Shown: positions 4,988-15,313 of the stretch, in pieces
Numbering within the stretch: the first letter of the stretch is position 1
How the letters are laid out: every line of letters starts with the position of its first letter
Assembly: GCA_031291825.1 (NCBI GenBank)
Contig: JARLIG010000009.1
Coordinates: 136,058 to 200,057 of the forward strand
DNA: 64,000 nt
From: Minisyncoccota bacterium
GTDB taxonomy: Bacteria > Patescibacteriota > Minisyncoccia > Phycocordibacterales > UBA9973
Direction of reading: 5' to 3'
The notes under the pieces: model-generated
What the model was told of the DNA's origin: nothing
The model's input: only the letters and a program-made list of their open reading frames with translations
The model's database searches: none
Made by a program: the position numbers and the translations under genes

Positions 4988-5587
4988 ATGCAGAGCATAA
5001 AGAATGATGATTCTACGTCAACAGATGAAGAAATTATTATTTTATATAAAAAAAATCCGGAAGAAGCGTTAAAAATTATCGTGAACCGCTATACTTCTTC
5101 TATTTACAATTTTACCGCGCGCCTAGCAAACCGAAATGATGCGCCAGATATCGTTCAGGAGGTCTTTATAAAAATTTGGAAAAATATTACTTATTTTAAC
5201 CCCCTAAAAGCAAGTTTTAAGACTTGGATTTTTACCATTGCCAAAAACACAACCACTGATTTCTTAAGAAAAAGAAGAAGTCTTTTGTTTTCTGATATGC
5301 CCACCCACGCAGGCGGGGAAAAAGATGATGAAAATATAAATTCCTTTGCGGAAAATATTCCCACCGAAGAATTATTGCCTGATTTGGTTTTACAAAAGCT
5401 AGAAGACAGTAAATTTCTAAACGAGGTCCTAGATAAATTGCGCCTAGGTTATAAAGAGGTTTTGGTGCTTCACTATCAAGAAGAAATGACATTTGAGGAA
5501 ATAGGAAAAATCTTAAAAAAACCATTAAATACTGTTAAGAGTCAACACCGCAGAGCCATTATGGAACTTCGAAAAATACTTAACTAA
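4988..5587 (+). CDS. RNA polymerase sigma factor, ECF (sigma-70 family group 4)
   Basis: Region 2 (DIVQEVFIKIW) and region 4 helix-turn-helix (LVLHYQEEMTFEEIGKIL..NTVKSQHRRA). Confidence 0.85.
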   Translation: MQSIKNDDSTSTDEEIIILYKKNPEEALKIIVNRYTSSIYNFTARLANRNDAPDIVQEVFIKIWKNITYFNPLKASFKTWIFTIAKNTTTDFLRKRRSLLFSDMPTHAGGEKDDENINSFAENIPTEELLPDLVLQKLEDSKFLNEVLDKLRLGYKEVLVLHYQEEMTFEEIGKILKKPLNTVKSQHRRAIMELRKILN

Positions 5588-12861: not shown

Positions 12862-13842
12862 TTAAGGTAAAATAGAAAGTTTATTTTTAAGTTTATAAGT
12901 ATTTCCACGAGAAAGCATTCCTAAATAAGACTGTTGGGACTCTTCTTTAGGATTTTCCTTTAATCGTTTGAACATCCTCCTTTTCGTACTAGTTCTTAAA
13001 ACTCTATGCTTTGAAAAATTAACCCAGCCGAGAAAATCAACTCCCGAAGCAATGGTTTTAATGTAAACCTTATCAGGATGTAATTGTAACTTTAATTCTT
13101 TCTCTAAGAAATCACTGATTTTTGGCAGCAATTCTTCAAGATACTTTTTGTCATCACTCAATATCACAAAATCATCCGCATATCGTATATAATGTTTTAC
13201 TTTTAATTCTCTTTTTACATATTGGTCAAACTCATTCATGTAAATATTCACTAGCAGTTGGGAAGTGAGATTACCGAGCGGTAAACCAACTTCAACTTCT
13301 GGCTTGGTGGAAAAACTATCTATTACTTGAAAAAGTAACCATAAAATATCTGTGTCAAAGACGGTCTTTGACAGTATCTCTTTTAATATTTCATGGTCAA
13401 TATTCGCAAAGAATTTTTTGATATCGCACTTCAAGACGAAACAAGTTTCTGTATTGTTTTTGGAAGCTTTGAGAGAGAAATCACGAAACCTGTTTACGGC
13501 TTTATGAGTTCCTTTATTTATCCTACAAGAATATGAATCGTGGATGAATTTAGAATCAAAATTTGGGTATAAAATTCTGTAAATTGCATGGTGAAGCAAT
13601 CTATCCCGGACATTTGCCTTGTGAATATTTCTTGGTTTTGGGTCTGAAATATTAAAAGCAACATATCCCCCATGTTTGTATGCTTTATTTCTTAAATCTT
13701 TATGTAGAGATAAAATATTATCCATAAAATGCAATTGAAAAATCTCCACATCTTCTTTATTTCTTTTTCCATGTAGAAATTCTTTCCAAGCCAGAAGCAA
13801 ATTTTCAACAGAGGTCATTTTTTCAAAATTTATTGCATCCAT
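12862..13842 (-). CDS. diversity-generating retroelement (DGR) reverse transcriptase
   Basis: Reverse-transcriptase motifs in order: RNIHKANVRDRLLHHAI, SYSCRINKGTHKA, VLKCDIKKFFANIDH. The DGR-diagnostic motif 4 is LGNLTSQ (I/LGxxxSQ rather than QGxxxSP). Motif 5 is YIRYADDFVIL. 326 aa from ATG 13842, the same size as BPP-1 bRT. Adjacent to the TR. Confidence 0.85.
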   Translation of the reverse strand: MDAINFEKMTSVENLLLAWKEFLHGKRNKEDVEIFQLHFMDNILSLHKDLRNKAYKHGGYVAFNISDPKPRNIHKANVRDRLLHHAIYRILYPNFDSKFIHDSYSCRINKGTHKAVNRFRDFSLKASKNNTETCFVLKCDIKKFFANIDHEILKEILSKTVFDTDILWLLFQVIDSFSTKPEVEVGLPLGNLTSQLLVNIYMNEFDQYVKRELKVKHYIRYADDFVILSDDKKYLEELLPKISDFLEKELKLQLHPDKVYIKTIASGVDFLGWVNFSKHRVLRTSTKRRMFKRLKENPKEESQQSYLGMLSRGNTYKLKNKLSILP

Positions 13843-13894
13843 GTTATGATTATAGTTTATCAGTATTAAAATTAAAAAAAAATGACAAATAAGA

Positions 13895-13903
13895 CCCCCC
13901 CCC
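13895..13903. repeat. C9 homopolymeric tract in the divergent RT / Avd-like intergenic region
   Basis: ccccccccc at 13895-13903 in an otherwise AT-rich intergenic region. Confidence 0.9.
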
Positions 13904-13948
13904 ACTTGGAAAATTTTACCAGTTTTAGAAATTATTAAAGGAGTTTAC

Positions 13949-14266
13949 ATAGAGTGGCAGAAATGTTTACCAACTATTCCGAAAACTTCGCGGTATACTT
14001 TAGCCGAAACAATAGACAAATATTTTATCCAAACCATTGAAAGTATTTTGGTTGCAAGTTTTTTGGAAAAACAAGAAAAACAGCCATTTGTCCGAAAAGC
14101 TATTATTTCACTTGATACTTTGAAATTTCTTTTATATATACTCTGGGAAATTAAAGCATTGGACACTAAAAAATTTACTGCTTTATCGGAATCACTTGCG
14201 ATAACTGGAAAACAACTCGGTGGTTGGCATGGACAACTTGTAAAACAAAACTCTCCCACAAAGTAG
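13949..14266 (+). CDS. Avd-like four-helix-bundle protein (DGR accessory variability determinant family), start codon uncertain
   Basis: The open frame from 13886 reads ..EWQKCLPTIPKTSRYTLAETIDKYFIQTIESIL..FVRKAIISLDTLKFLLYI..ALSESLAITGKQLGGW. It matches the four-helix-bundle / 23S IVS protein pattern (WQK, FPK-like, LGxW C-terminus). No canonical start codon lies upstream of the TTG at 14048. An AGGAG at 13938-13942 precedes an ATA at 13949. Confidence 0.45.
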   Translation: MEWQKCLPTIPKTSRYTLAETIDKYFIQTIESILVASFLEKQEKQPFVRKAIISLDTLKFLLYILWEIKALDTKKFTALSESLAITGKQLGGWHGQLVKQNSPTK

Positions 14267-14283
14267 GAGAGAAATGAAAAAAG

Positions 14284-14394
14284 TTGCGACGGAGAGCCGG
14301 GTTGCACGCATCCCAGACGTCGTCGAGGCGGTTCCAGTTCAGAATCACCTTGTCGCCATTCTCGATGAGATACGGCACATTATCGTCCTGGACG
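14284..14394 (-). repeat. DGR template repeat (TR), 111 bp
   Basis: 95 of 111 identity to the VR. All 16 differences are at TR adenines on the minus strand. Non-coding position between the Avd-like ORF and the target gene. Confidence 0.85.
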
Positions 14395-14712
14395 AACGTA
14401 TAAAACACCATCTGTGCCACCACCCTTTAAAATTCCTTCGGAATAGTTCGGGGTTGAATATTATTTCGCATAACAATGCGTCAGTATTCTATACCAAGTA
14501 TTTTCATTTTTTATGAAGTTTCTGCGTATATCACTCTGCTTGAAACCTTAATCTCAAACACTCTCGATATACGGATACTGGTCTCGGCAGAAAGAAATCG
14601 TAATCGCTTTCAGATTCGCCTACTACCATACTTAGTATATCAAAATATAAAACAAAAAGGCCTGGCACCATCACCGAAGTGACAACACAAGGCCTCAAGA
14701 TAAAACGAATGC

Positions 14713-14755
14713 AGGACTAAGATCAAAAATTCAAGAAAACCAAAGTCTTAGTCCT
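14713..14755 (-). promoter_or_regulatory. inverted repeat (10-bp stem aggactaaga/tcttagtcct) immediately 3' of the VR, DGR hairpin-like
   Basis: A perfect 10-bp inverted repeat directly after the target stop codon. A GU-rich hairpin with U-tract (about 14650-14700) lies further downstream on the minus strand. Confidence 0.5.
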
Positions 14756-14761
14756 TAGAAC

Positions 14762-15241
14762 TTACTTGCGACGGAGAGCCGGGTAGCACGCAACCCAGAC
14801 GTCGCCGAGGCGGCGCCAGAACAGAAGCACCCCGTCGCCATACTCGACGAGAAACGGCACATGACCGTCCCGGACGCTTCGCCAACCGAATATGGCCTTT
14901 CCCGCAAAATGCTTCCGGAAAAAATCGATGCCTTTGGTTTGTATCGCTTTGAGTTCGTCAAGGTCCACGCAACCAGCGAGCAGACCAGTTTCTTGCAGGT
15001 GTGAGTAAATCACGCGACCGCGTGTCCAGCCCGTCTTCTGGTCTTCGTGCAACCAAAGTTCGGTGCGACCCTCCACGATAGCGGTAACGATATCGCCACC
15101 ACGACGCAAAGAATCACGGATTCCAACGAGACGATCGCGTCCAGCTTGACCGAGCAGAGTGAGGTCCTCTGTTGTCCAACCTGCGGCTGCAAGTGAATTA
15201 CCAGTCTGACGCAACTGTCCATCTGAAAAGGTTGAAGACAT
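14762..15241 (-). CDS. DGR target (variable) protein, 159 aa, VR in C-terminal 37 codons
   Basis: The ORF carries the VR at its 3' end and is strikingly GC-rich. SD aaggag sits 7 nt upstream of the ATG. No signal peptide is evident. Confidence 0.8.
   Translation of the reverse strand: MSSTFSDGQLRQTGNSLAAAGWTTEDLTLLGQAGRDRLVGIRDSLRRGGDIVTAIVEGRTELWLHEDQKTGWTRGRVIYSHLQETGLLAGCVDLDELKAIQTKGIDFFRKHFAGKAIFGWRSVRDGHVPFLVEYGDGVLLFWRRLGDVWVACYPALRRK
14766..14876 (-). repeat. DGR variable repeat (VR), 111 bp
   Basis: Counterpart of the TR. All 16 substitutions fall on codon positions 1 or 2 of the target reading frame. GC-rich 3' end cccggctctccgtcgcaa is shared with the TR (IMH-like). Confidence 0.85.
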
Positions 15242-15313
15242 GTCTTTCTCCTTTATGGCACATGTGCCATTGCTGTTTGTATTTGGCTTTCGCCACAGCT
15301 TTTAAGAAACACT

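Follow-up and report, generated by a model that had tools for sequence, protein, structure and literature searches.

A length-variable C run at the 5′ end of avd as a possible phase-variation switch for diversity-generating retroelements in Patescibacteria

The DNA analysed here, a stretch of 64,000 nucleotides (nt) of contig JARLIG010000009.1 from a Minisyncoccota bacterium (assembly GCA_031291825.1), is called the window below, and all coordinates refer to this whole stretch. It carries a compact diversity-generating retroelement (DGR) on its minus strand (12862–15241), with a reverse transcriptase (RT), a template repeat (TR) and a target gene in which a variable repeat (VR) lies. The accessory gene avd lies on the plus strand, between TR and RT and antisense to both. 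We show that the apparent lack of a start codon in this avd is explained by a 1-nt offset in a run of nine cytosines (C9) that follows the true ATG at 13882. The interpretation that we favour, with confidence slightly better than even, is that this hypermutable repeat phase-varies the supply of Avd by slipped-strand mispairing at the DNA level and thereby gates DGR mutagenesis. The wider proposal, that the avd repeat acts across Patescibacteria as a master switch by which DGR hypermutation is phase-varied, we put forward tentatively, at somewhat less than even confidence.

A one-nucleotide offset after the avd start codon

The original prediction, made from the letters of the window, had recognised an avd-like frame at 13886–14266 on the plus strand and remarked that no canonical start codon precedes it. 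Our analysis bears out the identification: this plus-strand frame encodes a true Avd. Its translation gave significant matches to the Avd family in profile searches, both to the NCBIfam model NF033474 (DivGenRetAVD; E = 1.1e-12, profile positions 8–102 of 104) and to the Pfam family PF22296 (bAvd; E = 1.5e-8), the latter being matched by 19 of 19 family members. The scores miss the curated cut-offs (48.2 bits vs 80 for NF033474 and 35.5 vs 40 for PF22296), as do those of the reconstructed full-length protein; the Avd found here is a divergent subfamily. Among PDB sequences, a profile search found no Avd, and the fold was compared instead. An AlphaFold model based on 29 homologs (pLDDT, the predicted local distance difference test, 92.5) comprises four helices, predicted to span residues 6–24, 27–52, 56–82 and 88–116 of the segment encoded by 13904–14266. 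Foldseek aligned the model with the BPP-1 Avd (4dwl; template-modelling (TM) scores 0.80/0.89, root-mean-square deviation (rmsd) 1.6 Å, 21% identity) and also matched Avd chains in structures of the DGR ribonucleoprotein (8ub7, 8ube and 8ubb), as well as the related bundles of the intervening-sequence (IVS) type 2gsc and 2rld. The likeness to the BPP-1 Avd and the bRT–Avd–RNA complex (4dwl, 8ub7), with a four-helix bundle of ~120 amino acids (aa) in common, ranges over TM 0.76–0.89, rmsd 1.6–2.3 Å and 18–21% identity, and extends to the basic character of the protein and to the position of its gene beside a DGR RT and TR. Unlike in BPP-1, however, the avd of the window lies on the opposite strand, inside the spacer between TR and RT, and has a slippery repeat after its start codon. 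With 127 aa and an isoelectric point (pI) of 9.55, the protein has the size and basicity typical of Avd (110–130 aa, pI ~9.5); the published mean pI of Avd proteins is 9.5 ± 0.7 (Wu et al, 2018; PMC5758913, cited throughout from its parts on Avd and DGR architecture).

The coding strand was assessed in 36 close relatives. Conservation in the plus frame is codon-periodic, with values of 0.9–0.99 at codon positions 1 and 2 and 0.65–0.72 at position 3. Periodicity alone is undecisive with regard to a 120-aa open reading frame (ORF) on the minus strand, which shares its wobble positions with avd. However, the plus frame is open in 36/36 relatives, whereas the homologous antisense frame is open in only 3/36 under a strict test. 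Thus, the minus-strand ORF is spurious, as had been suspected, and was rejected as a real gene.

The features of the avd region are as follows:

13882–13884, plus strand: true avd start codon ATG, 4 nt upstream of the start coordinate in the original prediction and one base out of frame with the avd body
13882–13938, plus strand: zero-frame product of the assembled C9 allele, an 18-aa peptide (MTNKTPPHLENFTSFRNY, by translation) that ends at TAA
13895–13903, plus strand: C9 homopolymer, codons 5–8 of avd, a slippage-prone simple-sequence repeat
13904–14266, plus strand: avd body, TWKILPVLE...KQNSPTK followed by a TAG stop, four-helix bundle
13945–14307, minus strand: spurious 120-aa antisense ORF, with wobble positions common to avd

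The avd frame is open from 13886 to the TAG at 14264–14266. It is closed upstream by a TGA at 13883–13885, which overlaps the ATG at 13882, and its first in-frame ATG, GTG or TTG is the TTG at 14048, in line with the original prediction. In the assembled allele the avd body is in the +1 frame relative to ATG 13882, from which the zero-frame peptide, including MTNKTPPHLENFTSFR, is read. A run of C8 (or C11) would bring this ATG in frame, and the product would then begin MTNKTPPTWKILPVLEIIK. With C8, ATG 13882 reads MTNKTPPTWKILPVLE, identical to the closest database homologs P0001 (93% identical) and P0002, whose N-terminus is MTNKTPPTWKIL. The contig that encodes P0001 (L137) has the same DNA as the window across ATGACAAATAAGA-Cn-ACTTGGAAAATTTTACCAGTTTT, except for C8 vs C9. 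Helix 1 is predicted to begin at the P of LPVLE (13919–13933), and the C run would lie in a short unstructured N-terminal tail. The C9 run is the sole G/C run of at least 7 in the 64-kb window, where 0.03 runs of at least 9 are expected. Relatives that lack the tract use a plain in-frame ATG or GTG a few codons before helix 1 (L044, L112, L072/74/75 and L021, the last having only C6). Likewise, the divergent head-to-head viral relatives L143, L146 and L151 have no run and are in frame from an upstream ATG or GTG.

A frameshift had been among the explanations first offered for the missing start. This proved correct in kind and wrong in place: the offset was sought near 13960–14040, with an out-of-frame ATG at 13963, and actually lies inside the C9 run. 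The landmarks described at the time are all present, including the TGG of EWQK at 13955, the AAGGAG at 13938, the ATA at 13949 and the ATG at 13963. Non-canonical or internal initiation at ATA 13949 (after AGGAG), ATA 13889 or TTG 14048 would be another explanation. The AAGGAG at 13938 does sit 5 nt before ATA 13949, and many homologs are given a downstream start by gene callers. However, a start at 13949 removes half of helix 1 and one at 14048 removes helices 1–2, the match to the profile starts from residue 18 of this frame, and homologs and tract-less relatives all reach the upstream ATG; moreover, the internal Met of some relatives (EIMK) is absent in the window. We therefore consider such initiation extremely unlikely. 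The unusual start once proposed at AGGAG/ATA 13949, which truncates helix 1 and finds no support in homologs, has no role, and ATG 13963 and TTG 14048 were rejected with it, since these starts cut into helices 1–2 and homologs extend to the upstream ATG.

The C run and its length in related loci

We collected related DGR loci from genomes (56 loci, one per GTDB species), from metagenomes (80 loci) and from 3 further contigs. The genome loci span Nomura-, Zambryski-, Lloyd-, Lipton-, Niyogi-, Wildermuth-, Jorgensen-, Portnoy-, Nealson-, Harrison-, Brenner-, Wolfe- and Vogelbacteria, among others. From the 123 analysable loci we obtained 105 distinct 5′ alleles. A C run of 7–12 occupies the avd 5′ site in 97 of these alleles, whereas 3 have C6 and 5 have no run. 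The mode is C9–C10, and the lengths are distributed as follows:

C7: 6 alleles
C8: 11 alleles
C9: 40 alleles
C10: 32 alleles
C11: 7 alleles
C12: 1 allele

The run is kept even in loci whose Avd identity is 36–50%, and no part of the region is less conserved than the intergenic DNA that surrounds it (0.61–0.68). Only seven other G/C runs of at least 7 occur in 586 kb of flanking sequence, four of them in one locus. In L034, runs of G13, C32, C21 and C28 are clustered at 5374–5549, ~2.3–2.5 kb downstream of the avd start, and this cluster is probably an assembly artefact. As an outgroup we used 66 viral contigs with the canonical arrangement of avd followed by RT on the same strand; a long homopolymer at the avd 5′ end was found in 0/66.

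In two loci the C run gives way to a dinucleotide repeat at the same site, (CT)8 in L056 and (GA)19 in L141. The ATG is out of frame in both, and one unit fewer restores the frame. This replacement speaks against poly-proline coding, against a minus-strand G-run motif and against general slippage of tRNA-Pro, and points to the mutability of repeat length. Poly-proline coding was rejected as the reason for conservation also because CCC makes up only 10% of the Pro codons of the window. These observations argue that the tract is selected at the nucleotide level and point to slippage, not composition, as the selected property.

The same replacement bears on a possible role of the tract on the minus strand, where a G run might act as a structural or regulatory RNA or DNA element in the RT leader or in the TR–RT RNA, the disruption of the avd frame being incidental. 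The run indeed lies upstream of the RT ATG in every locus, at 53 nt in the window and at ~17–22 nt in distant loci, and a hairpin at the opposite end of the gene, described below, is under constraint from both Avd and the minus-strand RNA. However, the distance from the run to helix 1 is nearly fixed (8–13 nt), whereas that from the run to the RT start is variable. Furthermore, (CT)8 and (GA)19 correspond to (AG)n and (TC)n on the minus strand, with no common RNA motif, and loci without the tract have fully diversified VRs (8/8). Such a role is thus very improbable. A G run serving as the Shine–Dalgarno element of RT was rejected separately, as its spacing of 17–55 nt is too long and too variable.

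Frame states were assigned from the nearest upstream ATG with a frame open to the run:

All alleles with an open ATG (98): in frame, 19; needing +1 (one C too many, as in the window), 51; needing −1, 28
Close relatives with a clearly homologous ATG (41): in frame, 10; needing +1, 25; needing −1, 6

Both distributions depart from equal thirds by chi-square (p = 2e-4 for the 98 alleles and p = 6e-4 for the 41 close relatives), values in which independence is overstated, the loci being related. Most frequent is the state seen in the window, one unit above the in-frame length. About 55 of the 96 classifiable database homologs are called from a downstream start (MKSAY..., MPVLE..., MPTIPK...), the choice expected of a gene caller when the upstream ATG is out of frame. 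With avd truncated or missed by gene callers in more than half of the loci, DGR censuses are biased in their counts of "avd-less" elements and contain short Avd entries. For annotation, we advise looking for a 5′ C run together with an upstream ATG.

Changes in tract length can be followed in 17 pairs of loci whose flanks are at least 97% identical, mostly with 0/500 mismatches. Run length is the same in 15 of the 17 pairs, and out-of-frame states are common to contigs of different length from two collections (L007/L077, L003/L059, L029/L108 and L017/L086); together, these two observations imply that random error is not the cause. Run length differs in the presence of 0/500 flank mismatches between L111 (C11) and L113 (C9) and between L118 (C9) and L120 (C10). 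L004 (C5TC) and L066 (C6) also differ in the tract, and their 1,100 nt downstream of avd are identical outside the VR.

These pairs help to evaluate whether the organism is truly C8 and the extra C a homopolymer miscall of sequencing or assembly. Homopolymers of nine are error-prone on several platforms, and one C fewer restores a perfect gene. Nevertheless, the out-of-frame state is found in most close relatives and in many separate public assemblies (L001, L002, L003/L059, L005, L007/L077, L057, L065, L089 and others), and tract lengths are equal in nearly all of the near-identical pairs, so that a miscall is quite improbable.

The avd body is under equal purifying selection in every frame state, as judged from codon-position divergence. 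At positions 1/2/3 this amounts to 0.136/0.080/0.452 in out-of-frame loci (n = 24) and 0.147/0.093/0.438 in in-frame loci (n = 9). A stop or frameshift in the gene body was found in 0/36 loci. The original prediction had considered a decaying accessory gene, and a pseudogene that was inactivated by the frameshift and is now being lost would account for an assembled gene that is untranslatable from its ATG. However, conservation of the frame is codon-periodic, no second lesion is present in 36/36 relatives and out-of-frame alleles are as constrained as in-frame ones. Moreover, the mismatches between TR and VR in the window are adenine-specific (16/16, within a match of 111 nt), and VR turnover is ongoing in relatives. 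Decay is therefore scarcely credible.

DGR activity was examined through the same kind of mismatches. Among loci with a detectable TR/VR pair, adenine-specific mismatches occur in 37/42 of those needing +1, 21/22 of those needing −1, 18/18 of those in frame and 8/8 of those without a run. Four near-identical pairs from different samples (L111/L113, L004/L066, L101/L102 and L028/L107) differ in their VRs while being otherwise identical over ~1.6 kb; the differing sites fall at TR adenines in 35/36 cases overall (pair counts of 8/8, 22/23, 3/3 and 2/2, not in the above order), and the tract also differs in two of the pairs. This turnover at adenine sites indicates that the DGRs are active in nature now, in groundwater populations of Patescibacteria. 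The VR and the run are the only changes on the timescale of near-identical contigs. Among pairs in which both members are out of frame, seven have identical VRs, maybe because they stem from the same population, and two have differing VRs (L004/L066 and L101/L102).

Proposed phase variation of Avd and the recoding alternative

Avd proteins are characterised as homopentamers that associate with the RT and are required for retrohoming, and in the systems studied Avd is an obligatory partner of the DGR RT. The avd of the window shows two hallmarks of a contingency gene governed by a simple-sequence repeat (SSR): a mutable repeat in the 5′ coding region (C9, codons 5–8), the length of which differs between otherwise identical sequences and sets the frame. 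We favour switching at the DNA level because tract length varies between identical genomes, dinucleotide repeats substitute for the run, and tract-less alleles are in frame. According to this model, the repeat, which in a large lineage of Patescibacteria DGRs falls within the N-terminal tail of Avd, predicted to be disordered, would change in length by one unit through slipped-strand mispairing during replication, and the translation of Avd would thereby be switched ON or OFF. The target protein would be diversified in cells with C8 or C11, and the existing VR would be kept in those with C9 or C10; the assembled C9 allele would make only the 18-aa peptide. Most cells would be OFF and inherit a proven VR, until a rare slippage of one unit switches Avd ON and sets off a burst of target-protein diversification. 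One contingency locus would in this way control another diversity generator. Such switching would occur at the DNA level, would be reversible within populations and would control DGR activity.

The proposed arrangement resembles the phase-variable poly-G/C genes of Campylobacter jejuni, Neisseria and Helicobacter pylori, which likewise carry a run of 7–12 G/C near the 5′ end of the coding sequence, with a length that varies between otherwise identical genomes and sets the frame. Further cases of intragenic tracts include the poly-C tract of mga in group A Streptococcus (PMC10330708) and homopolymers of M. tuberculosis (PMC10334774). Unlike in the known contingency genes, the target here is a hypermutation cofactor and not a surface or restriction-modification gene. 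The host also differs, being an uncultured lineage of the candidate phyla radiation (CPR), as does the conservation of the repeat across many candidate phyla, and switching is here proposed from sequences. A full-text literature search, outside of which Paul et al. (2017) remained, found no paper in which the avd of a DGR is connected with a homopolymer, with slippage or with phase variation, nor any on phase variation in CPR bacteria. The identity of Avd and its antisense placement are known; what seems to be new is the SSR contingency switch proposed for a DGR cofactor, as a lineage-wide pattern rather than a single locus.

Several points weigh against this model. Within-population heterogeneity and reversibility are presumed from consensus alleles, and in the more distant loci the start ATG is a probable assignment. 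Simple unbiased switching does not predict the uneven frame states (51/28/19, p = 2e-4), and the +1 state could be recoded. Consensus states that are out of frame are seen repeatedly in near-identical contigs drawn from different collections. The VRs have diversified in the pairs L004/L066 and L101/L102, both members of which are out of frame, which fits either a minority of ON cells or recoding. The loci are phylogenetically related and their counts non-independent, and dinucleotide repeats are present in two loci only. A strict requirement for Avd in this lineage is assumed by analogy with BPP-1, and some DGRs are described as having no avd altogether (Wu et al, 2018; PMC5758913).

The uneven frame states could instead reflect recoding. 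In this alternative the C9 (+1) allele is the working design, and either slippage of RNA polymerase, yielding some C8 transcripts, or a +1 slip of tRNA-Pro on CCC_C would provide a constitutive low level of Avd. Recoding of this kind can coexist with DNA variation, and slippage may well act on top of DNA switching. The CCC_C sequence is a classic +1-prone proline site, and transcriptional slippage is efficient once a run reaches the length of the RNA–DNA hybrid, as established for A/T runs. The +1 state dominates, with 51/98 alleles and 25/41 close relatives, and is shared by near-identical contigs of separate collections. Purifying selection acts in full on out-of-frame loci, and VRs have diversified even in pairs with both members out of frame. 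The modal length of 9–10 equals that of the RNA–DNA hybrid and reaches the length for transcriptional slippage (~9 or more), although the run is C and not A/T. A slippery P-site is also present (ACC CCC CCC C|AC), at which CCC re-pairs in the +1 frame, again as CCC.

However, other features expected of recoding are missing. The direction of the shift is not uniform, as 28 alleles need −1 and 19 need no shift, and no conserved stimulator is found: the zero-frame codon after the run, in the A-site, is CAC or CGT, neither a stop nor evidently rare, and a stop in the zero frame comes 11 codons further downstream. (CT)8 and (GA)19 are beyond rescue by slippage of tRNA-Pro, tract length varies at the DNA level, and efficient slippage is less well documented on C/G than on A/T runs. 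Comparison with known systems leads to a similar picture. As in +1 frameshifting of prfB, CCC_C slippage and transcriptional slippage (A9 of Thermus dnaX, insertion sequence (IS) elements, rescue of poly-A tracts in endosymbionts), a slippery homopolymer stands between the start and a body in another frame, and the shift is mostly +1. Unlike those systems, the window has no zero-frame stop, hungry codon or upstream stimulator, and its lineage combines a non-uniform shift with a run of C instead of A/T and with dinucleotide repeats that substitute for it in two relatives. On balance, we regard recoding as the principal explanation of the tract as unlikely, though by no means negligible.

Phase variation of Avd would have consequences for DGR biology. 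The natural regulation of DGR mutagenesis is largely unknown, and unchecked retrohoming should be costly, so that a built-in stochastic switch acting on the obligatory cofactor would offer a simple solution. The bacteria concerned would be the CPR/Patescibacteria, one of the groups richest in DGRs and not yet culturable. Public groundwater time series, the source of many of the contigs, constitute existing data for comparing tract length with VR diversity.

Antisense orientation, hairpin and other features of the cassette

The remaining features of the cassette are listed below:

12862–13842, minus strand: DGR reverse transcriptase, ATG 13842, start MDAINFEKM, motifs LGNLTSQ and YADD, head-to-head with avd
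13822–13850, plus strand: candidate avd promoter (TTCAAA, 17-nt spacer, TG-TATGAT), weak, with only 9/12 consensus matches, inside the first RT codons
14241–14271, minus strand: conserved hairpin (14271–14251) plus GTTTTGTTTT run, directly 3′ of the TR, terminator-like scan match
14284–14394, minus strand: TR; the VR match extends to ~14399
14766–14876, minus strand: VR, at the 3′ end of the target gene
14762–15241, minus strand: DGR target gene, 159 aa, 50–57% G+C

The RT matches RVT_1 (E = 2e-25, profile search) and contains both DGR-type motifs ([LIV]GxxxSQ and YxDD), as LGNLTSQ at residue 189 and YADD at residue 221. Its ATG (13842) and that of avd (13882) are divergent and separated by 39 nt. 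An N-terminally extended RT starting at GTG 13905, a 347-aa ORF that reads Gly-Gly-Gly through the G run, was discarded as an artefact, since this GTG is absent in relatives and RT alignments begin with MDAINFEKM at ATG 13842. The VR ends 2 nt short of the stop codon of the target gene (14762–14764), as expected of a DGR. The 159-aa target protein has no match in Pfam or NCBIfam profile searches.

The coordinates confirm that avd is antisense to RT, TR and target gene. The original prediction had rightly seen this orientation and had flagged it as odd, which it is not. The arrangement corresponds to the already catalogued Architecture B3, TR-(avd)-RT with avd on the reverse strand, to which 90% of the CPR DGR set belongs (Wu et al, 2018, Nucleic Acids Research; PMC5758913). 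Gene order and orientation in the window are the same as in B3, and avd is head-to-head with RT in 53/53 related genome loci with enough sequence. The description of B3 in that source concerns gene order only; its architecture part makes no mention of a homopolymer in avd, of a disturbed reading frame or of phase variation. The IMG/VR viral contigs L142–L151 also have avd and RT head-to-head, with the avd ATG within or beside the first RT codons of the other strand and without the repeat. Thus, a B3-like arrangement also exists on predicted phage contigs, without the switch.

The relative conservation of Avd and RT depends on distance. In close relatives Avd is the more conserved of the two (89% vs 76% in L001, 84% vs 65% in L008), and in distant relatives the order is reversed (Avd 36–50%, RT 58–67%). 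The former differs from what is usual, as avd genes are reported, in the part of the same survey that deals with them, to be mostly poorly conserved (Wu et al, 2018; PMC5758913).

At its 3′ end, avd overlaps the conserved hairpin on the minus strand. Six of the eight stem pairs stay paired despite changes on both sides (13 loci), and an invariant GUUUUGUUUU adjoins the hairpin in the equivalents compared (L001–L025). Read in antisense, this stretch codes for the Avd C-terminus KQNSP, which is nearly invariant, and for the stop codon, so that two constraints act on the stretch; the third-position conservation of avd climbs to 0.82–0.86 here. The hairpin resembles an intrinsic terminator, or else a structured element at the 3′ end of the TR RNA. 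Were it to end transcription, no TR RNA would extend antisense across avd, and a separate promoter within avd would be required for RT.

A block at 14404–14493, just upstream of the TR on the minus strand, shows a conservation of ~0.8 without codon periodicity in the avd frame and may represent either a promoter or the TR RNA's 5′ part; conservation within the TR is lower (0.60–0.71). Base composition also changes within 14200–15300, with 47–57% G+C across the TR and the whole target gene compared with 37% in the window and 26–33% around RT and avd. An 80-aa ORF on the plus strand (14274–14516) runs antisense through the TR. In the database entries P0012 (189 aa) and P0013 (154 aa), the avd frame runs on into the TR-antisense frame, which makes these "four helix bundle" proteins artificially long.

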